DNA from: Scenedesmus sp. PABB004 | Taxonomy: Eukaryota | Direction: 5' to 3' | NCBI GenBank assembly: GCA_014905635.1 | Contig: JABVCE010000017.1 | Span: 310,001 to 374,000, forward strand | DNA: 64,000 bases | Translations under genes and position numbers: made by a program | Shown: one piece after another, positions 13,080-63,671 of the stretch | Layout of the letters: the number at the start of each line of letters is the position of its first letter | Numbering within the stretch: the stretch's first letter is position 1 | The notes under the pieces: model-generated | Seen by the model: only the letters and a program-made list of their open reading frames with translations | What the model was told of the DNA's origin: nothing | Databases searched by the model: none

Positions 13080-16000
13080 TCAGGCAAAGACCTTGAAGGA
13101 CCCCCAGGCCTCGGCGATGCTGTAGATACTGCCGACGGTGCCGAGCACGCCGATCACGCCTGCGGGGGTGGTGGGGAGGGGCAGAGCGGCGGCGCGGGGC
13201 AGAGCGAGACGGCGGCGCGGGGCGGCTTGAGGCGGCGGCGGCGCGGGAGAGACATGCACGCCACACCCGAGGCCCCGGCGCGCCCCACGACCAGACCCCC
13301 TCGCACTCCTAAACCCTGCGACTCAAGCAACCTCTGCTAAACCCTGCGACTGCGACTCTCAAAGCCCCGCCTCACCCGTGATGCCGACCAGGAAAACGTT
13401 GACGGCCCACTCCAGGCCCCAGCGCTCGGGCTGCTTGTACAGCAGCCAGAAGAGCGGCGGCAGCAGGAAGGTGGTGGGCGTGATGGCGATCGCGCCGACG
13501 AGGCCCTGCGGCGCGGGGTTTAGGGAGAGGCGCGGCGCGGGGAGACGGGGTCAGGGTGGGTGAGAGGGGAGAGGGAGAGGGGGTGCGCAGGGTGGAGGGA
13601 GAGGGGGAGGGGGAGGGGGCGGGGGAGGGGGCGGTGGCAGCAGCGGCGGCGGCAGCGGCGCACCATGAGGCTGGAGAAGAAGGGGATCTGGGGTTTAGGG
13701 GGCGGGGGCGGGACGGGGCGGGCGAGGGTTTAGGGTTCAGGCATGGGCTGGCGCCGCGCGCCGCGCGGTGCGCGGCTGGAGGGGCTGCGTGTGCGTGCGT
13801 GAGTGCGTGGGGGAGGGGGCGGCGGGGCGCGCGCGCGCGCGGGCGGGGCGGGGCGGGGGCGCGCACCACGATGCCGACCACGGTGACGGCGGCGACGTAG
13901 CTGAGGCGGATGGCGGTCGCGAGGAAGGGGTTGACGCGCGCCGCGCCGCTGTTGCAGATTTGGGGGGGCGGGGGCGGGGTTGAGGGTTGAGGGTTCAGGG
14001 GGGCGTCGTCGGGCGCGGCGCGCGGCGAGAGTGGGGCCGGGCCGGGCCGGGGCGCGCGCGGCCGCGCGCGCGGGCGGGCGGGCGGCGCTGCTCGCAGCAA
14101 AGCGCGAAACAAGAGGGCCAGGGTTTTGCGTCGCGCCCCTAAACCACGCACGTGCGGCGCCTGATGTCGACCTCAATCATCTGGAAGACTGGCTGCGTGT
14201 AGACCTGGTACGCCGCCGCGACGTGGACGACCACAAACATGTCTGTTATTGTGTTATTTGTGCGACGGCGGGGTTTTAGTTGAGCAGCGGGGGCGGGGTG
14301 TTAGGGCGCGAGCGGGGGGTCGAGCGGCGCGGGTGCGGGCGCGGGGCGGCGGCGCGGCGGCGAGGGGCGCGGCGGCGCGGCGCGCACCGGCCATGGCGAC
14401 GACCCAGCTGTACGGTCCGTGCGTGAAGGAGAGCAGCACGTTGTCCGCGACGCCGATGCCAAACGCCTGCGGTTCAGGGGTTTGAACGGGGTTTGTGGCA
14501 GCGCGGCGGCGGCGGCGGCGTTGCGGGGTCAGCAAGGGGCTGAGGAGAGGGCCGCCGACGCGGCGGCGGCCCGGGTGGCGCGGCAGCGCCCACGGGCGCG
14601 GCAGCGGGCGCGGCAGCGGGCGCAGCGCAGCCGCGGGCGCGGGGCGCGGCGGGGCGGGGCCCAGACAAAACCCTCGCTCCCTAAACCCTCGCTCTCCCTA
14701 GCCGCTGCTCACCCAGAAGCCCACGATCGACACGCCAAAGTAGGCGAGGCCGGTCACAACAAAGGTGATGTTCACGCCTTTTAAGGGGGAGGGGAGGGGG
14801 GGGGGCGGGAGGGTGAGGCGGTGTGTGTGGGTGTGTGTGGGGGCGTGCGTGCGTGCGCGGCGGCGGCGCGCCGCGCGCGCGCACGGCGCGGCGCGCGGGC
14901 CGCAGGGTGGCGGCCGCACCGCGCATCATCGCGGGCACGCTGCTCGCCGGGTGCTTGCCGCCGATCGGGATCGTCGCCTGGGGTGGAGTGCGGGGGCGGC
15001 GGCCGCGGCGTCGGCTCGCACGCCTCCGCGCGCGTCCGCCGCCTCTGCCGGCCCTCGCAGGCCGTCGCCGCTAAACCCTCGCCCCCTCGGGACCCACCTG
15101 GATCTCGAGCGCCACGTTGTGCCCGCCGTATGCAAAGAGCACGCTGGAGATGGCGTTGAAGATGCCCATCGTCCGCGACACGGGCGACCGCGGCACCTGG
15201 CGGGGGGGGGGGGGGGTGAGAGGGAGCGCGCGTCGGGAGATGCGTGCGTGCGAGGCGCGTCGGGCGCCGGTCGCCCGCCGCCGGGGCGTTGGTCAAACCC
15301 CCGCCGGCGTTTGACCGCCGGTCAACCGGCGGTCAACGCACCGCCATGGGGTCGTAGCCGACGCTCCCGTGCGGTGGGTTGACCGTCGCGCTCATCGCGA
15401 CGGCGATGGTGCAGTAGGCGACGCTCATGATGGCGCCCAGCAGCGAGACGAGGCTGAGCTCGTTGAAGCTCGGCAGCTGGCGGGGTTTAGCGGGCGCGGG
15501 CGGGCGGGCGGGCGGGCGAGCGGGTTTAGTGGCGGGGCGGGTGTTTGTTGGTGTCGGGCGCGCGCGCGCGCGCGAGCGCGCGCGCGTCCCGGCCCTCCTC
15601 CGCTGGGCATCAAACAACCCCGAGGCGCCCCCCTTCAGATCTTTAACACTTAAACCCTAAACCCTAAACCCTCGACACCCACCAGGGAGAGCAGGAGCTG
15701 CAGGCCGCCAAAGATGACGTAGAAGGGCCACTTGCCCATGTAGGCGGTGCCGCCGCGCGACACAAAGTTGGAAAAGGCGGCCAGGCTGCGCGCGCGCGGG
15801 AGGGAGCGGAGAGGGAGGGGGAGCGAGGGAGGGAGGGAGACGGGGAGAGAGCGTGTGAAAGTGTGAGTGTGCGTGAAAGTGTGAGTGTGTGTGAGAGGGG
15901 GGAGGGAGGGGCGAGCGGGGCGCCCGCGCGGCGCGGCGGCGGTCGCGGCGGCGCCGCGCCTGTCGCCGCCGACGACAGTGTAGGTGATGGCGATGCCCAC

Positions 16001-17871: not shown

Positions 17872-20800
17872 TCACGCGCGCTGCGGCTGCGCCTCCGGCG
17901 GGCGCGCCGCGGGCGGCCCCATCGGCTGCGCGCCGCCGCCGCTCGCGGCGCCGCCGCCCGGCGCCGGCAGCGCGAGCGGCGCGCCGCCGGCCTCGCGCTG
18001 CGCGGCCGCCGCGGCGCCGAGGTTTGCCAGCGCCTCGGCGACCGACGCGGGGTCGACGCCCGCCGCCGCGGCGGCCGCCTGGAACGCGCTCGTCAGCGCG
18101 GCGGCCGCCTGGTCGGCCGTGATTTCGTCGCCGCCGCCGCCGCCGTCGGGCCCGGCCGTGCCGCCGAGCAGGCCAGTCAGCCCCAGCACGCCCTCCAGGT
18201 GCGCGGGGTTGACGCCCGCCGCGCTCGCGGCCGCCGCGACGGCGGAGAGCAGCTCCGCGATGCCGCCGCCGTCGCCGGCGGCGTCGGGCGCGGCGCCGGC
18301 GCCGCGCGGCGCCGGCGCGGGCGGCACGCCAAACGGCGGCACCGCGGGCGGCGCGAGCGTGGAGGGGTCGGACACCGAGGCGTCGGCGCTCGCGAGCGAC
18401 GCCGACGGCACGCCGAGCACCCGAGCGGCGCCGGCAGCCCCAGGTGGCCGGCGCCGGCGGACGCCGGGTACGGCGGCGGCGGCCCGCCGCCGAGCCCCGC
18501 CGCCGCGGCCACCGGCGCGGGCGCCCCTGCGTCCGAGGCGCGCAGGCCGAGCAGCGCGCTGGCCGCCTGCGCGGGCGACGGCCCGCCGCCGCCGCCGCCG
18601 CCGCCGGCGCCACCGTACTGCAGCGGCTGCGGCGGCGGCGGACCCATTGGCGGCGGCAGGCCGCCGCCGCCGCCGCCGTACGGCACAAAGCCGCCGCCGT
18701 CGCCGGCGTCGCCGCCGCCGTACGCGGCCGCCGCGGCGGCCTCGCGCTCCTCGCGCTCGCGCGCCTGCTCCGCGAGCGCCTCGAGCTGCGCCTGGCGCCG
18801 CTCCTCCTCCTCGGCGATGGCCAGCTGCTGGCGCAGCCGCTCCTCCGCCTCGGCTTTCTGCTGCTCCAGCGCGGCGCGCGCGGCGCGCTCCGCGTTGCTC
18901 GGCCGCCCCCGGCCGCGCTTTTTAAACGGATTGAACGACTCCAGCGCGGCGCGCGCCTCGGCCGCCGCGCGCGCCGCGAGCGCGGCGGGGTCGGGCGTGG
19001 CCATTGCCGCGTCGATGAGCGCCGCCGGCGGCGGGCCGTCCGGCAGCGCGACCAGCCCTGCGGCGTGGCGGCGCCGCGGCGGCGGTGTGGCTCGGAGCGC
19101 GGTGCGAGGTGGGGCGCGCGTGCGCAGCGGCAGCCCCGGCGCGCGGCGCGCGGTGGCGCGCGCGCAGCGGCAGCCCCGGCGCGCGCCGCGGCCCAGGCGG
19201 GCAGGCGGCGGCGGCGGCGAGCGCGCTGCAGCGCTGCGGCGCCGGCGCCGCACCCTCCATCAGCGCGGCGACGAGCTCGCAGTGGTCCCGCGTCTGCAGG
19301 TGCTCCTTGAGCGCCGACCGCTTGCCCGACCTGCGCGCGCGGCGGCGGCGGCAGGGACGCGGTAAGAGGTCAGCGGCGGGCGGCCCCTGGAAGCGCGGCG
19401 CGCGCCCCGTTTCCACGCCCGGGCCCCTCTCCGCCCTGGCCCGCGCCCTCCGCCCTGGCACGCGACCTGGCCAGCGCCGCGGCCGCCGGCGGCGCCGCCG
19501 CACCGGTATCCCTTTGCAAAGGTGTTGTTCTTGTCGTAGCCGCGGCAGAGGCGGCAGAAGATGAGGCCGCGCTCAAAGCGCAGCGGGTCGCCGCGCACCG
19601 CGATCTCCACCCAGCTCAGGCCGTTGGGCAGCAGGAACTCCTGAATGACAACAACGCAACAGGGGACGGGCCGGGCGGGGGCAGAGGGGCGGGCGATGGC
19701 ACGCCGTGTGCGCGCGCGTGTGTGTGTGTGGTGGTGGGGGGGGGGGGCTGGAACGCGGGCGGGGCGCACGCCGCGCTGCCGGCGGGCACGCGCTTGACAG
19801 GGCGCCGCACCTCGTCGTTCTCCCATTGGGACTTGGCGTATTCAAAGTACACCGGCTGGGGCGCCGGCAGGGTTTTGAACGGGGTCAGGGCGCGGGGTTT
19901 TGGGGCGTAGCGGACGCGCGGCGGGGCGGGCGGGCGGCGGGCGGGCGGCGGTCAGGGCGCCGCCGCGGGCGGGGCGCCCCGCGCGCGCGGCGGCGCGGCG
20001 GTGTGGCGCGGCGCGGCGGCGTGGCGCGCCTGCTTCTTCTCCGCCGCCGCCGCGGCGCGCTCGCGCTCGAGCCGCGCGCGGCCGCGCCCGCGGCCGCGCC
20101 CGCGCGGCCGCCCGCGCCGCGCGCCCGCCGCCGCCGGCGGCGCCGGCGTTGCCGGGCGCGGCGACCTCGTCCCTGCGCGGCGCGACGCGCGGGCGCGCGG
20201 GCGCGCGGGCACGCGTGAGCGCGCTGTGCGGCGCCGGCGTGGGCTCATACGTCATTTTGTTTGGTTTGAACACTGAGTGTGTGTTAATAACACAAAAGTG
20301 ACACGCGCCTGTACATCTCGTCCTCGTAATAGTCGTTGAGCTCGTCGTCGTCGGCGTCCGGCCCGGGGCTGAAGTTGTCGCCGCTGTAGCGCTCGCCGTC
20401 TGCGCGGCGGCGGCGCGGCGCGGCGGGCGGGCGGGCGGGCGGGCGTTTCTTGGTGGCGCGGCGCGCTGCGCGGCACGGCGCGGCTGCGGCAGGGCCGACG
20501 CGGCTGTGCGGGCGCCGGCGACGCCGCGGCCGCGGCGCCGCACCGCTGCCCCACATCGCGTACGGGCGCTTGCTGCCGGCGCCGCCGGTGCCGCCGCCGC
20601 CGCTGTGGCCGCCGTGGCCCTCGAGCATGAGGGGCCCGCCGCCGCCGCTGCTGCCCATGACGCCCGGCGGCCCCCCATACGCGCCGCCGGGGCCTGCGGC
20701 GCGGCGCGCGCGGGGCCGGCGCAGGGAGAGTGGGTCGGCGCGGGCGCCGCCCCCGGCCTGCGCGGCGCGCGGCCTGCGCGCGCCGCGGGCCCCGAGCGCG

Positions 20801-22236
20801 CCAGCGCGCGCCGGCCGGCCCCCGCGGCGCACCCGCCGCGCTCGGCCCGCGCCCGCCCGCGCCCGCGACTGCAACGAGCTCCTCCAGCAACACGTCGAGC
20901 GTGCGCTGCCGGCAGTAGCCCGACACCGCGGTGCACGCCTGCAGGTGCCGGTCCGCGCTGTACGTCGCGCAGCAGTCTGCGCGGCGGCGGGAGCGCGCGC
21001 GGGCGCGGGCGGCGCGGCGGGCGGGCGTGAGGAGGAGGGCCGCCTCACGCACGGCGGCCGCCCCCGCCGGCCAAACATCCAAAGTGCGATGTTAAACAGA
21101 AATGACACAAAACTGACGCAAAACTGACGCAGGAATGCCGGCGGCGTGCCAGCCCACCCGTGACGAGCGTGACGAGGAAGCCAAGGTCGGCCGCGTCCTT
21201 GGCCGCGTGCGCGACGCACTGGTCGGTCACCGCGCCCGCGAGCAGCAGGAAGCGCTTGTCCATGTTGCGCAGCACGTAGTCGAGCGGCGTCGACGTGAAC
21301 ACGCTGCTGCTGGTCTTGGGCAGCACGATCTCGTCCGGCGCGGGTGCGAGCGCGTCGACGACCTGGCCGCACCGCGAACGCGCGCGCGGCGCGGGAGGCG
21401 CGCGTGTCGCGACGTGCGCGCGCGCGTTGGTTGACGTGCGCGCGTGACGTGCTCGCGGCGGCGGCGCGCGCGCGGCCGCCCCCCAAAGCAGGCGCGCCGC
21501 CGCCGCCGCGCCGCGCCGCGGCGCGCGCCGCCGCCGCCGCCGGCGCCGCACCCGCGCGTCCCAGCAGCCGGGGGGGACGTGGAAGCCGCTGATCTTGTAG
21601 TCCAGCCCCCGGTCGCGCCCGTCGCGCGTGAGGGACTGGATGACGGTGTAGATGACCTCGATGCCGCACGACCGCGCGGCCTGCGGGCATGTTATTTTGT
21701 GTGTTATTTTGTTATTTTGTTATTGTTAGGTTGTCATCTTTTGGGTCGAGTTGATTTGTGCGCGGGGAGGCCCGGGGCCGGGCGAGAGGGGCGCGCCGCG
21801 CGCGTGCGGCGCGGCGCGGGGCCGGCCGGGGCGCGCGCGGCGGGCGCGCCTGCTGCAGCTGCTGCCACTTGATGGTGCAGTCGTCGATGCGCGACCACCA
21901 GTAGGCAAAGTCGGGGCCCTGCGCGCCGCGGCGGCGGCGGCGGCGGCGGCGGCGGGGTCGCTGCCTCGCCGCGCGCGCGCTCGCCCGCGCCCCGCGCCCG
22001 CCGCCGCTGCGGAGCGCCCGCAAAGAGCGCGCGCGCGCGCGCATGAAAGGACAGGTTTTTTGAATAACAACAAGAGTAACGCCCCCGCGTGCCTGCAGCT
22101 GCTCGGGGGAGTACTGTCGGTACATCGCGCCGCCGCGGTGGCAGTTGTAGTTCTGGGTGTCCACAAACAGCAGCGCCGCCTGGCGCGGGTCGACCGCGAC
22201 CTCGCGCAGCAGGCGCTGCGGCTGGTAGCTCGCCAT
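17872..22236 (-). CDS. Isochorismatase-family cysteine hydrolase apparently fused to AT-hook / TTF-type zinc finger / coiled-coil region
   Basis: Hydrolase exons 22236-~20870 carry triad motifs LFVDTQN, PKTSSSVF and TDQCV. No stop follows the domain, and phase-matched introns lead to exons with RRGRPR, W..F..W..IFCRLC..F.KG..LKEH...H and KRGRGRP. Frame changes near 20125 and 18420 are needed. Confidence 0.75.
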
Positions 22237-30661: not shown

Positions 30662-32195
<1,534 letters not shown>

Positions 32196-41900: not shown

Positions 41901-43215
41901 TGCTGCGCCGCGACGGGCGCGGGCGCTGCGCGCTGCACCTCGCCGCGTACAGCGGGTGCCTTGCGGCGTGGGACTTTGCGTTGGAGGTCATCGGCGTGCT
42001 GGGGCCCTCGACGGCAGCGAGGCGGCGCTCGCGGCCAACGTGGCGGCGGTGCTGCGCCGCGCCGGCGACGCGCGCGACGGCCGCGGCCTGCTCCACTTTG
42101 CCGCGCAGGGCGGCTGCCCGGAGGTCGTGGAGAGCCTGCTGGAGCTGCTGCCGCCGCCGGCGGCGGCGCGGGCGGCGCGGCGGGCGGGCGGCTGCCGTGG
42201 CACCTCGCCGCCGAGCGGGTGCGCGCCCCGCCCGCGCGGCGCCGCCGGACGCCGCCGCCGCCGCTGCCGCCGATGCCGCCGCGCGACGCCCGCTCACTCC
42301 TGCACTACCTCGCTCGGCTGCCCCGCCCTGCCCCCGCGCCGCAGGGCCACGCGGGCGTGATGGCGCTGCTGCTGCGCCACGGCGCCGCGGGCGAGGTCGA
42401 CGCGCCCGACGGCGGCGGCGCGACCGCGCTGCACCTCGCCGCCGCGGGCGGGCACGCGTCGGCGGTGCGGGTGCTGCTGAGCGCTGGCGCCGACCCGGCG
42501 CGCGCCGCGCGCGGCAGCGGCGCGAGCGCCCTGCACTGCGCGGCGGCGGGCGGCATGCTGCGTGCCGCGCGCGCCGCCGGCGCGGCCGGCGAGGGCCCGG
42601 GGCCGGGCTTTGCCTGCGGCATTGACCTGGCCGCGGCGGCCGACAGCGGCGGCGCTGGGCCGTCCGCTGGGCTCACACCCACCATCTCGGCGCTCCTGGA
42701 GGCCGGCGCGCCGGCCAGCCAGCGCGACGCGGCCGGCTGGCAGCCGCTGCACTGGGCGGTCGCGCGCGGCTGCCGCTGCGACGCGGAGCTGCTCCTCGCG
42801 GCGACGCGCGCCGCGGACGGCAGCGGCGGCGGCGGCGGCGGCGGCGACGGCGCGCTGAGCGGCGCTGCAGGGCGGCAGGGCTGGGCTCCGCTGCACGTTG
42901 CCGTGCTCATGGGCCGGCGCAGCATGGTCAAGCTCCTGCTGGAGCAGCAGCCGGGCAGCGAGGCGGAGCTGCCGGACGCGGCAGGCCTGGCGCCGCTGCA
43001 CTACGCCGCGGCCGCCGGCCGCGCCGACCTGTTTGCGCTGCTGCAGCGCGGCAGGCCCTGGCGCGCCGCCGGCGCCGACGGCGGCGGTGGCGGCGGCGAG
43101 GCCGCGCGGCAGCTGCTGGTGCTCGCGGCCGCGTCGGGCAGCGCCGAGCTCGTGCGCCTGCTGCTGGACGGCGGCGCCGCGGAGGCGGACGACCCTGCGC
43201 CGCGCAGCAGCGCCG

Positions 43216-57667: not shown

Positions 57668-58933
57668 ATGGCCGATCGGAGCAGCGGCTCGGGCCTGCAG
57701 CTCGCGGCGGCCCACCTGGCGCAGGGCGGGGCGGGCGGCATGCAGCTGGAGAGCCCCGTCTTCCTGCCGGTGCTGCCGGTGAGGCCGCGGCGCGCGGGGG
57801 CGGGCGCGCAGTCCACGAATGGTCAGCGAGGCCGCCCGCGCCCCGCCCGCAGGTGGAGGCCAGCCCCACGACCGGCAACTTCAGCGCCGCCAGCCTCGTG
57901 CCGCCGCTGTTTCAGATGGCCGGCGCGGCCGGGGGCGACCCGGGCCTGCCGGGCGTGCATGGCCTCCCCGCCAGCGCCAGCCCGGTGCGTGGGCGGCGCG
58001 CGCGGGGGCTCGGGCGGACCGGCTGCCGCCATGCTGGCCGCAGCCGCGGCCCGGGGCGGCGGGGGGCCCGGCGCACCAATGGCTCGCGCCATGCGGCCCT
58101 CGGCCCTCCCGGCGCGCACGGGGCGGCCCCCCGGCCGGAGCCCGGTCGCGCGGTGGCAGTGACTCACGGACCGCCTCCTGGGCGCGTCCGTGGCGGCCGG
58201 GGGCGGCCTCGGGGGCACCAGTCCCCGGGTTGACCCTCGCGGCCCGCCCCCGCGCCGCGCCTGCCGCCCCGATCGGCGCCTGCGCCCGCTCACGAGGCGC
58301 GCCCCGCCCCGTCCCGCCTAACGCCCGCCCGCGAGCTCAGGCCGGCGGCAAACCGGGCAAGCCGGGCAGCGCGAACGACGACGGCTGGGCCTGGCGCAAG
58401 TGCGCGGCCGGGCGGGGCGCGGCGGGGGCGGGGGCGCGCGGGCGGCGGTCCTGCCCGCCCCGGGGCGCGGCGGACGCACGAGCGGGGCGGCGCGCGGCGC
58501 GCGGCGGGCCGCGCCGCGCGCCGCGTCCGCCGCCGCCGCTGCTGGTCAAGCCCGCGCGCGCGCGCCGCACCCCGCGCCGCTGCTGCAGGTACGGCGAGAA
58601 GATCGTCAAGGGCAGCCCCTTCCCGCGCAGCTACTACAAGTGCAGCAGCACGGGCTGCCCCGCGAAGAAGATCGTCGAGCGCGACAACCTCTCCGCCGTC
58701 AGCGCCGTCACAGAGTACAAGGCGCGGCCGCGGGCGCGGCGGGCGCGGCGGGCGAGGGGGAGCGCGGGTGTGGGCGCGGCGGGCGGCACGCCAGCGGCGC
58801 GCAGGGCGGCGCGCGCGCGCGCGCGTGCGTGCGGGAGCGCCGCCGCCGCCCACGCGGCGCCCGCCGCCGGGGCGGCCGCGGCCGTGGCGCGCAGGGCGAG
58901 CACAACCACGCCATGCCCAGCCAGTGGCGCGGC

Positions 58934-60798: not shown

Positions 60799-63671
60799 TG
60801 CAGGAGCAGCTGCAGGCGAGCGGCGATGGCAACGGGCCCGGCAGCCCCGCCAGCCAGGGCGGGGCGGCGGCCAGCGCGTCGCCGCGCAAGGCGCCCCCCG
60901 CCGCCGAGGGCTCGCCCGCCGCCGGCGGCGAGGCGGCGGGCGAGGCCGCGCCAGGCAGCCCCTGCTCGGCGGCCAGCGGCGGCGACGGCGCGGGGCCCGC
61001 CGGCGACGCGGGCGCCGACGCCGGCGGCGCGGGCGCCGGCGCCGGCGACGCGCTCGACGCGGGCGGCCTGCTCGACTCTGCCGCGGCGATGCAGTTTGTG
61101 AACAACATGATGGTGGCCATGGCTCCGATGAACATGATGGCGCAGCAGATGCTGGCGCTGAGCGGCGGCGGCGACGGCGGCGCGTCGGGCGGCGGCGGCG
61201 GCGGCGGCTTTGCGGGCCTGCCGCCCGGCCTCGCCGGCCTGCCGGGGCTGGGCGGCCTGGCCGGCTACGAGCCCGGCGACGACGACGATGACGGCGGCGG
61301 GCCGATGCCGGGCGAGGGCGCGCCGGACGGCGGGCAGCTCACGCGGCTGGTGCCCCTCAATGGCAACGACGACGCGTACAAGTGGCGCAAGTGAGCGCGG
61401 CGCGCTCGCTTGCTGATGGCGGTTTGGTTTGGGCCGCCGCCCGCGCGGGCGGCGGGGGCCGCGGCCGCGGATTTTTGGGCGGCGGGGGGCCCGCGCCGCG
61501 CCGCGCAGCACGACGATGCCCAGCTCGCACGTCCAGCCACGCGACTTGACGTGGCGTGACGCTCAAGCTGGGCATCGCCGTGCTGCGCGGGGCGCCGACG
61601 GTCGTCGTGCTGCGCGGGGCGCCGAGCCCGGCGGCGCCCGCCCGCTCACGCCACGCGCCGCGCGCCGCGCCGCGCCAGGTACGGGCAGAAGCAGGTCAAG
61701 GGCAACCCCAACCCGCGCAGCTACTACAAGTGCACCTCGCTCAACTGCCCCGTGCGCAAGCACGTCGAGCGCAGCGCCGACGACGACAGCAGGGTGCGCG
61801 GCCGGGCCGGGGGCGGCCCGCACGCCCCGCACGGCGCGGCGCGGCGCCGAGCTGCCGCGCGCGCCGCGGCGCCGGGCGCCCGCCCATGCCGCCGCCCCGC
61901 GCCCGCCCGCGCCCGCCGCGCGCAGCTGCTGGTGACGTACGAGGGGCGCCACAACCACGCGCCCCCCGCGGCGAGCACGCAGCGCGGCCGGCGCGCCAGC
62001 GGCGGTGCGCGCCGCGCCGCGCCGCGCGCCGCTCTGCGCCGCCCTGCCCCGGGGGCGGACGGGCAGCCCCCGCCAGCGAATTCCTTTCACATGCTCCCGC
62101 CCCCGCCCCCGCCCCGCCCCCGCCCCCGCCCGCGCCTCTCTCGCCCCGCAGCGCGCAAGGGCGCTGCGTACCGCGGCGGCTCGGCCGGCAGTCGCGCCGC
62201 GGCGCCGCCGCTGCTCGACCCGTACGACGCCGCGACCGCGGCCGCGCTCGGCGTCGAGCCGCACGGCGGCGCCAGCGCCGGCGGCGGCGGCGAGGGCGGC
62301 GCGTGCGAGGCCTACATGTTTGCGGCGCACATGGCCGCGGCGTCGTACGGCGGGCACGTCGCCGGCTACGCGCCGCACCCGTCGGGCCTGCCCGGCGGCC
62401 CGAGCGCGGCCGCCGCGGCCGCCGCGGCCGCCGCGGCCGCGGCCGTCGCCGCGATGGGCGCCGGCGGCGGCGGCGGCGCCGGCGCGGGCGCCGCCGGCAG
62501 CCTCGCCAGCGGGCAGCAGCTGATGCCGGGCGTGCACCGCCTCGCGTCGCCGCTGGACGACGCCGAGGCCGGCCCCGCGCCCAAGGTGCGCCGCGCGCCG
62601 CGGCCGCCCGCCCTGCGGCGCGCCGCACGCCGCCCCGCGCGCCGCCGCCTCGTGCGGGCGCGCGCGCGCTCCTTTCTCACCCGCCCGCCCCTCCGCCCCC
62701 CTCTCGTCCCGTCTCCTCGCCCAGCGCCAGCGCGCCTTGCTGGACGGCGGCGGCGGCGCGCCCGGCGGCGCGGGGGCGCCGCTGGTCAACCCCAACGAAG
62801 CGCTGCAGGAGGTGCTCAAGGGCGCCTCGGGCGCCGCCGGGGGCGGCGCGCCGCCGCCCGACGCCGGCGCCGTCGCGGCGGCGCTCGCGGCGGCCGCGGC
62901 GGCGTGCGGCGGCGACGCCGACATGGCCGACGCGGAGCCGGCCGCCGGCGGCGCGGCGCCGGGCGCCGGGGCCGCGCCGCCCGCCGCGTCGCCCGCGCGG
63001 GGGCAGCCGCGGTCGCCCGCCGGCGCGGACGCCGCGGCGCAGCAGCCGGGGCAGGTCGAGGCCGAGGGCGGCGGCGGCGCCCCGCCGCCGGCGCCGGCGC
63101 AGGCGCAGCAGCCGCAGCAGCAGCCGGCGCCGGCGCGGCAGCAGGGCGGCGGCGGCCCCGCGCCGCCGCCGCAGCAGCCAATGTACACCAGCTGGCCGCC
63201 GCCGCAGCCCGCCGCGGCGCACCCCACCGTCGTGCCGCCCGCATACGGCGAGCCAGGTGCGTGGGCGCGTCGCGCCGCGACAGCCCCGCGCGCGCGCGCG
63301 CGCGCGCGCGCGTGCGCACGCCAGCCAACGCGCGCCGCGCAGCTGGCTTGGCCCCGGCTTCCCCCGCCGACGGCCGCTCACGCGCGCCGCCCGCCCGCGC
63401 CGGCGCCGCAGGCGTGCCGAGCTGGGACCCCATGCTGCTCATTAACACCCCGCGGCCCACGCCCGGCGCGGCGGGCGCCGCCGCGCAGCGCGGCGCCGCG
63501 TTTGGGCTGCCGGACGCGCAGCAGCACCTGGCGCCGCCGGCGGGGCCGGCGGCGTACTTCCCAGGCGCTGTCGTCGGCTTCCCCCCGGGCGCGGGGCTGG
63601 CGGCGGGGTGCGATGCGGTCGTGCCGCCGCCGCCGGCGCCGGCCGCGCCGCGCGTCCCCGGCGGCGCGTGA
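57668..63671 (+). CDS. Group I (two-domain) WRKY transcription factor, many exons
   Basis: Domain 1: [31 protein letters not shown]..|GEHNH. Domain 2: [31 protein letters not shown]..|[12 protein letters not shown]-terminal LESPVFL and SPTTG motifs are typical of group I. Confidence 0.92.
59554..59706 (+). repeat. Coding 12-bp minisatellite (GAGCCCGAGGCG)n encoding (EPEA)n in the WRKY linker
   Basis: About 12 units are visible. Confidence 0.9.

Follow-up and report, generated by a model that had tools for sequence, protein, structure and literature searches.

We describe a predicted gene in a 64,000-nucleotide stretch of DNA from the green alga Scenedesmus sp. PABB004 (contig JABVCE010000017.1, positions 310,001 to 374,000 of the forward strand; hereafter the window, with positions counted from its first letter). 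The gene lies on the minus strand at 22236-17872 and, on comparison of its predicted product with protein families and relatives, very probably encodes a single protein in which an intact hydrolase of the isochorismatase family is joined to an AT-hook and a BED/TTF-like zinc finger.

Results

Gene structure

The gene is predicted to consist of about 12 exons, opening with an ATG at 22236-22234 and closing with a TGA at 17874-17872. Its product of about 830 residues would contain, in order, the hydrolase, a Gly-rich and acidic linker, an RGRP AT-hook, a CCHH finger divided between two exons, another AT-hook together with a coiled coil, and finally an Ala-rich tail. GC3-GC2 periodicity marks every proposed exon in the proposed frame, and the intervening sequence, which shows none, is 85-97% GC.

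The hydrolase occupies the first five exons, all of them, like the rest of the gene, on the minus strand. Exon 1 (22093..22236) holds Asp26 at 22161-22159, is 74% identical to residues 3-49 of a Tetradesmus obliquus protein described below, and ends at the GC donor CAG/GCACGC (the slash marks the splice junction). Exon 2 (21850..21918) also has a GC donor, CAG/GCGCGC, across which the protein alignment is unbroken. Exon 3 (21552..21680) shares 91% identity with T. obliquus residues 72-116, and exon 4 (21158..21362) supplies Lys130 (21317-21315) and Cys163 (21218-21216). Exon 5 (20833..20976) encodes the final hydrolase helices without a stop. The initial annotation of this DNA, made from the letters alone, had described a phase 1 intron at 20832-20694 following this exon, with donor G/GTGCGCC and acceptor CCGCAG/GC, and it is present exactly so.

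The linker begins in exon 6 (20544..20693), which is Gly-rich and of weak periodicity (0.27). Exon 7 (20309..20399; periodicity 0.57) carries a YSGDNFSPG motif and an acidic patch and ends at the GC donor CAG/GCGCGT; retention of the following intron would bring in a stop, TAA, at 20286-20284. The Arg/Gly-rich exon 8 (20030..20172) includes the RGRP AT-hook core at 20116-20105 and has the GC donor CAG/GCGCGC. Exon 9 (19811..19855) encodes a conserved stretch leading into the finger (VYFEYAK.QWE), 71% identical to T. obliquus. The first half of the finger is in exon 10 (19504..19640; 67% identical to T. obliquus), with Cys400 at 19556-19554 and Cys403 at 19547-19545, and the second half is in exon 11 (19254..19330; 68% identical), with His427 at 19302-19300 and His433 at 19284-19282. 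The first frame of exon 12 (18423..19057; periodicity up to 0.63) reads through KKRGRGRP (18923-18900) and a Glu/Ala/Arg coiled-coil-like stretch (about 18890-18720) into Gly/Pro-rich sequence. Within this exon the coding frame switches at a G-run (18420..18422), and one extra G would make it continuous; the Ala-rich C-terminal tail follows in the shifted frame (17872..18419), matches the T. obliquus C-terminus and ends at the TGA. These later exons read on the minus strand as they had been quoted in the initial annotation, KKRGRGRP and the E/A/R stretch included.

The 11 introns measure 136-196 nucleotides, and seven have GT donors and four GC donors. The form G/GTGCG[GC] is found in six of the seven GT introns, and all four GC donors are of the form CAG/GC[GA]CG. 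The sequence GTGCGGCG occurs five times in the gene, each time at a proposed donor; GTGCG[GC] occurs ten times, six of them at donors, and CAGGC[GA]CG five times, four at donors and the fifth within exon 12. Over the window as a whole, the minus strand has 22 occurrences of the last of these words and the plus strand 18. Of the four GC-AG introns (22092-21919, 21849-21681, 20308-20173 and 20029-19856), protein homology that runs ungapped across the junction confirms three, namely introns 1, 2 and 8. Introns of the GC-AG type may be more frequent than usual in this genome, and any gene finding here must allow for them and for homopolymer insertions and deletions (indels); programs restricted to GT donors would fail. 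A literature search on GC-AG introns in GC-rich green algae found nothing useful. The poly(A) signal TGTAA gave five matches against 4.2 expected, with none inside the locus.

Two frame changes, near 20125 and 18420, had been thought necessary to read the gene. The one at 18422-18420 stands: the first frame is periodic before the break and the conserved tail frame after it. An intron at this point was considered and rejected, as there is no donor word and the sole candidate pair (169 nucleotides, with a GAG acceptor) is out of phase. The change near 20125 is not strictly required, although the orthologue slightly favours it. The canonical CAG acceptor of exon 8, at 20172, is one base out of phase, whereas the GAG acceptor at 20165, weak but in phase, needs no frame change. 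When each base of exon 8 was deleted in turn and the exon read through, the best fit to the orthologue scored 179 (change at 20119-20127) against 159 for the GAG model, and the best fits align an AGA-GG-RGRGRPRG stretch with the orthologue. The acceptor at 20172 with a frame change near 20119-20127 is thus the reading that alignment favours, and our preference is only mild because the sequence is of low complexity. Splicing exon 7 directly to exon 9, or from a GT donor six bases past the end of exon 7, gives the wrong frame. For both frame problems, indels introduced by the assembly within G/C runs are the most likely cause, since an unrelated ankyrin-repeat exon on the plus strand breaks in the same manner, switching frame at a G-run (42001-42004) with no room for an intron.

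The hydrolase domain

The initial annotation had read the enzyme as an intact cysteine hydrolase with an Asp, Lys and Cys triad, and a domain search bears this out. Pfam PF00857 (Isochorismatase) is found in the hydrolase exons at 60 bits on 21048-21719, against a cut-off of 27 (exon 4 alone scores 50.6 bits), and Asp26, Lys130 and Cys163 occupy conserved columns when 10 stand-alone homologues are aligned with it. Exons 1-5, once spliced, align full length with such homologues, which are about 220 residues long and end 0-20 residues past the last helix. The gene has, as had been noted, no stop after that helix. Frame 0 is stop-free at 21044-19845, frame 1 at 21091-20255 and frame 2 at 21711-20287, and the stretch open in all three (21044-20287) includes about 550 nucleotides past the hydrolase domain; therefore the enzyme cannot end before 20287, even given an indel.

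Exon 4 alone matches RutB structures at E 2e-8 with Lys and Cys aligned, and the closest solved or curated matches of the enzyme part are RutB (PDB 8BLN/8BKD) and BiuH. On these comparisons the enzyme part is assigned to the RutB/biuret-hydrolase branch of the isochorismatase-superfamily cysteine amidohydrolases. The substrate of RutB or BiuH is not transferable to it, because it falls far short of the equivalog thresholds: TIGR03614 (RutB) requires 377.95 bits and gives 38.9 with the window piece and 57.9 with the T. obliquus orthologue at full length, and NF008623 (PncA) requires 174 bits and gives 20.1 and 32, respectively. The 50 PDB structures matched by the orthologue all align within its enzyme part.

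AT-hooks, zinc finger and tail

The zinc finger, which the initial annotation had labelled TTF-type, gives two partial matches to the Pfam family PF25431 (zf-C17orf113), which is BED/TTF-like. Exon 10 aligns with profile positions 13-34 (18.8 bits, E 0.0014) and exon 11 with positions 39-58 (15.7 bits, E 0.014); the two halves are split by an intron and were scored separately against a cut-off of 29.5 bits, and their profile positions are consecutive. The spliced finger of the T. obliquus orthologue reaches 43.2 bits against the same cut-off. The predicted zinc ligands, Cys400, Cys403, His427 and His433, form the pattern C-x2-C-x23-H-x5-H, and all four are kept in T. obliquus.

RGRP cores with basic flanks occur at residues 328-331 (exon 8) and 492-495 (exon 12, within 18923-18900), and the core in exon 8 is conserved in T. 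obliquus. By our estimate RGRP is expected by chance about 0.7 times per 850 residues of this composition, and the AT-hook call therefore rests mainly on conservation. The Pfam AT_hook profile, a very short model whose silence is weak evidence, gave no match at E <= 1 with the window pieces or at E <= 0.1 with the orthologue. Both the zf-C17orf113-type finger and the AT-hook are DNA-binding modules. The finger type is, we take it, derived from hAT-like transposases and usually N-terminal in hAT-type transposases or their domesticated derivatives.

The ESM Atlas offered only leads with the finger region of the orthologue (scores up to 0.90, with GTF2IRD2-type and BED clusters up to 0.88, in keeping with a hAT-like origin) and no usable match with exon 10. 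A search of a 5.8-billion protein set with the finger exon yielded three candidates, none of which scored. A metagenome scan with the same exon returned 601 pattern stretches and one confirmed locus (L001), which is a bacterial ABC-transporter region and was rejected as a chance match.

An orthologue in Tetradesmus obliquus

Searched by HMMER, exon 4 matched 1202 proteins at E <= 0.001; 150 of them were listed, and 22 of these were scanned for domains. The closest among those listed are short exon-like fragments, 60-76% identical, from unannotated relatives, and these run into an intron at the same position as exon 4. All of the sequence after the hydrolase domain, compared by phmmer with the 150 listed proteins, gave no match at E <= 10. 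From a word-indexed search with exon 4 we took the best 120 of 1228 matches, and one of the 120 relatives listed carries both PF00857 and PF25431, namely T. obliquus OEZ86_007199 (665 residues, 85% identical in exon 4). It belongs to a cluster of five T. obliquus proteins of 652-679 residues from two assemblies, together with two short fragments; the members, OEZ86_007199 (WIA44446.1-WIA44449.1) and OEZ85_013576 (WIA23935.1), are annotated as hypothetical proteins. A literature search on the OEZ86 proteins or on C17orf113 found nothing relevant.

By tblastn, OEZ86_007199 is collinear with the locus on exons 1-5, 8 (20128-20042), 9, 10, 11 and the tail, where the match at 18135-17878 is 44% identical with E 1.8e-11. 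Aligned by segment, identity is 83% in the hydrolase (214 columns), 38% in exons 6-7 (residues 309-389 of the T. obliquus protein, 89 columns), 48% in exon 8 (44 columns), 71% in the finger (86 columns) and 47% in the tail (83 columns). The order of parts is likewise shared: isochorismatase, Gly-rich linker, YSGDNFSPG and acidic patch, RGRP, zf-C17orf113 and Ala-rich tail. As judged from these alignments the gene is orthologous to OEZ86_007199, and because the T. obliquus protein is collinear over the whole locus, the arrangement is best read as a conserved gene and not as chance open frames. Our claim that enzyme, AT-hook and finger form one gene, which the initial annotation had advanced from the letters alone, draws its main support from these collinear proteins. 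The T. obliquus proteins differ in being shorter (652-679 residues against about 830 here), in their longer, Gly/Val/Thr-rich linker and in having neither the second AT-hook nor the coiled-coil stretch of exon 12.

Beyond T. obliquus, orthologous hydrolases occur in short forms. Those of Chlorella vulgaris ('RutB', 223 residues) and Parachlorella kessleri (228 residues) stand alone, and that of [Myrmecia] bisecta (KAK9804842.1) has a similar N-terminus and a C-terminal extension that is first Gly/Ser-rich and then acidic; none of the three has an AT-hook, a finger or a tail. The fusion is probably conserved within Sphaeropleales, to judge from the two species compared, and it seems restricted to part of Chlorophyceae, because the trebouxiophyte, Chlorella and Parachlorella forms are short.

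Genomic setting

GC content is 74-84% across the whole window. Pfam searches of its codon-periodic segments, which are short exons, identified PP2C, an amino-acid transporter, cyclophilin, ankyrin/U-box, MatE, TsaE and two WRKY domains. The window is nuclear DNA of a green-lineage eukaryote, its green-lineage origin being supported by the two WRKY exons (plus strand, 58635-58751, E 1.3e-4, and 61683-61823, E 4.9e-15). Chlorophyte algae are also the source of the proteins nearest to the fusion gene.

Contigs of a freshwater metagenome run (X1; DNA contigs, share 0.05) were placed on the window. They are short, near-identical pieces of DNA, for example 186 nucleotides with two differences at 21146-21331, and among the rows listed none is informative at the splice joints or at either frame break. 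Summed contig depth rises to 59.8 at 14401-14867 and 1-10 elsewhere in the window; the peak could be a repeat or a segment common to other organisms.

Several further sequence features were also seen. CCCTAAA, which on the opposite strand is a telomere unit of the plant type, stands three times in tandem at 15627-15682, inside the amino-acid transporter gene region, and a TTG microsatellite of about 169 nucleotides lies at 31168-31336 in the cyclophilin gene region. The window contains 22 AT-rich pockets (at most 45% GC over 40 nucleotides, against a background of about 79% GC), in which the words TGTTATT and AATAACA recur. Four of the 22 lie in introns of the fusion gene near a splice site (22034-22090, 21675-21763, 21066-21139 and 20237-20324).

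Discussion

The fusion is probably real and conserved, and probably not a mis-joined gene model, when the locus is set beside its T. obliquus counterpart. Several points weigh against this view. The exon chain at this locus is a prediction from DNA, and nuclear location, DNA binding and enzyme activity are likewise predictions. The finger domain is absent from the other 119 relatives among those listed in the word-indexed search, and no finger was found in the 22 proteins scanned of the 150 listed exon-4 matches. Exon 12 has no collinear T. obliquus counterpart, and the T. obliquus models may be computational; the two assemblies were probably annotated alike and are hence not independent. The assembled frame is broken at 18422-18420 and, if the canonical acceptor is used, in exon 8 as well. 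The nearest trebouxiophyte orthologue, KAK9804842.1 of [Myrmecia] bisecta, has 280 residues and lacks the finger. Since it ends after its acidic extension, a short enzyme-only product made by retention of intron 7 (stop at 20286-20284) is conceivable here too.

Carried further, this last point would give two neighbouring genes on the same strand, or a bicistronic transcript, with the same mis-join repeated in the T. obliquus models. The enzyme would end at that TAA, eight codons past exon 7 if 'intron 7' is retained, and a finger gene would start at one of two ATGs 28-35 nucleotides further on (20255-20253 or 20248-20246); the out-of-phase canonical acceptor of exon 8 and the [Myrmecia] bisecta orthologue, which is enzyme and short extension only, would both suit such a division. 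We nevertheless judge it distinctly unlikely. A gap of 28-35 nucleotides is far below the coding-sequence-to-coding-sequence gaps of about 700 and about 1200 nucleotides that separate the fusion gene from its same-strand neighbours, and coding-signal blocks inside the gene are at most 433 nucleotides apart. Exon 7 ends at the CAG/GCGCG donor word of the homology-proven introns, one of 22 on this strand in 64 kilobases, and the AT-rich pocket that follows it resembles those of the proven introns 1, 2 and 4. The stretch 20250-20170 has no coding periodicity in the frame of the ATG, and the ATG of better context is not in the frame of the finger. Finally, in each of the five T. obliquus proteins the AT-hook directly adjoins the acidic patch.

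An explanation of about the same low probability accepts the fusion in the lineage and regards this copy as decaying, its frameshifts being true ones and the tail, perhaps also the finger, being lost. The frame change needed at 18422-18420, and that near 20119-20127 with the canonical acceptor, are what such decay would leave. Codon periodicity is however strong on both sides of each break, the tail that follows keeps 44-47% identity with the orthologue, and the exons contain no in-frame stop; the similar G-run switch in the ankyrin exon points instead to homopolymer errors of assembly. That the finger is a remnant of a hAT-type transposon beside an enzyme gene, without host function, is highly improbable: the Atlas leads to GTF2IRD2-type and BED clusters (leads only, up to 0.88) and the transposase ancestry that we presume for the finger family would agree with it, but Pfam detected neither a transposase core nor a hAT dimerisation domain in the 12 locus pieces, the window's periodic segments or the T. 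obliquus proteins, two species share the finger at 71% identity with conserved non-transposon segments on either side of it, metagenome X1 shows no depth spike over the locus, and no second copy of the finger exons appears among the window-wide matches listed at E <= 10.

We thus return to a single gene for a fused protein. The finger and AT-hooks would tether the protein to DNA, and the linker between them and the enzyme, Gly-rich and acidic and bearing the conserved YSGDNFSPG motif, is probably disordered. The hydrolase domain might act on a small ureido- or carbamoyl-type amide near chromatin, or alternatively it might serve as the ligand-sensing module of a transcription regulator. The combined statement, the fused architecture together with a role as DNA-tethered amidohydrolase or ligand-sensing regulator, we consider likely, a shade less firmly than the architecture by itself.

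If made as predicted, the protein would bring together, in green algae, the fold of a metabolic amidohydrolase and modules that bind DNA, and its conservation in two species argues for function over accident. T. obliquus is cultivable and would offer a tractable test of the long-standing idea that an enzyme domain can be the ligand sensor of a transcription factor.

The known systems nearest to the enzyme part, RutB and BiuH, have the Lys and Cys of the triad aligned with those of the algal enzyme and are bacterial stand-alone enzymes, whereas in this alga the hydrolase is fused. Other fusions of the same hydrolase are found in eukaryote-like proteins, in which the N-terminal hydrolase is 55-60% identical in exon 4 and is followed by a long C-terminal addition. 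Among the 22 proteins scanned, ten carry a glutamine-synthetase-like partner, two a GATase, one a pyroglutamyl peptidase with a 2OG oxygenase and one an FGase; the partner is thus an enzyme, in contrast to the DNA-binding module of the algal gene. The glutamine-synthetase-like fusions are P0055, P0067, P0109, P0117, P0122, P0128, P0130, P0131, P0099 and P0034, the cluster of P0055 coming from MMETSP transcript assemblies, and the recurrence of this pairing may hint at the substrate class. A further protein, P0002, has 5923 residues and 28 stretches matching exon 4.

One protein may be a second fusion of finger and hydrolase, in reverse order. P0073 (434 residues, from a JGI metagenome contig of 4352 nucleotides) has a hydrolase of the same subfamily at its C-terminus, and its N-terminus shows aromatic residues followed by C-x2-C-x13-H-x4-C, BED-like by eye; Pfam gave no match for this N-terminal part.

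The initial annotation did not recognise the architecture from characterised proteins. The algal fusion is indeed uncharacterised, and a literature search on isochorismatase combined with a TTF-type finger found none; an orthologue was however already in GenBank, and a fungal fusion of isochorismatase and finger was published in 2006. That article describes filamentous fungi in which a WRKY-GCM1 finger derived from MULE elements is joined with an isochorismatase domain, and it proposes the catalytic domain to be a small-molecule sensor (Babu, Iyer, Balaji and Aravind 2006, PMC1702500). It would be tempting, though we think it doubtful, to see in the fungi, the Sphaeropleales and possibly P0073 a class of chromatin regulators that sense or destroy a ureido or amide metabolite, made by repeated and independent coupling of RutB-like hydrolases to transposase-type fingers; the AT-hooks would then steer the algal protein to the rare AT-rich islands of a genome of about 80% GC. 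Compared by description, the fungal and algal proteins share a transposon-type zinc finger, an isochorismatase domain and the sensor idea, at which the initial annotation had also arrived, and they differ in the fold and the transposon superfamily of the finger (WRKY-GCM1/MULE against BED/TTF-like) and in kingdom. The algal gene, apparently independent of the fungal one, would be the second case of such a fusion after the fungal WRKY-isochorismatase proteins.

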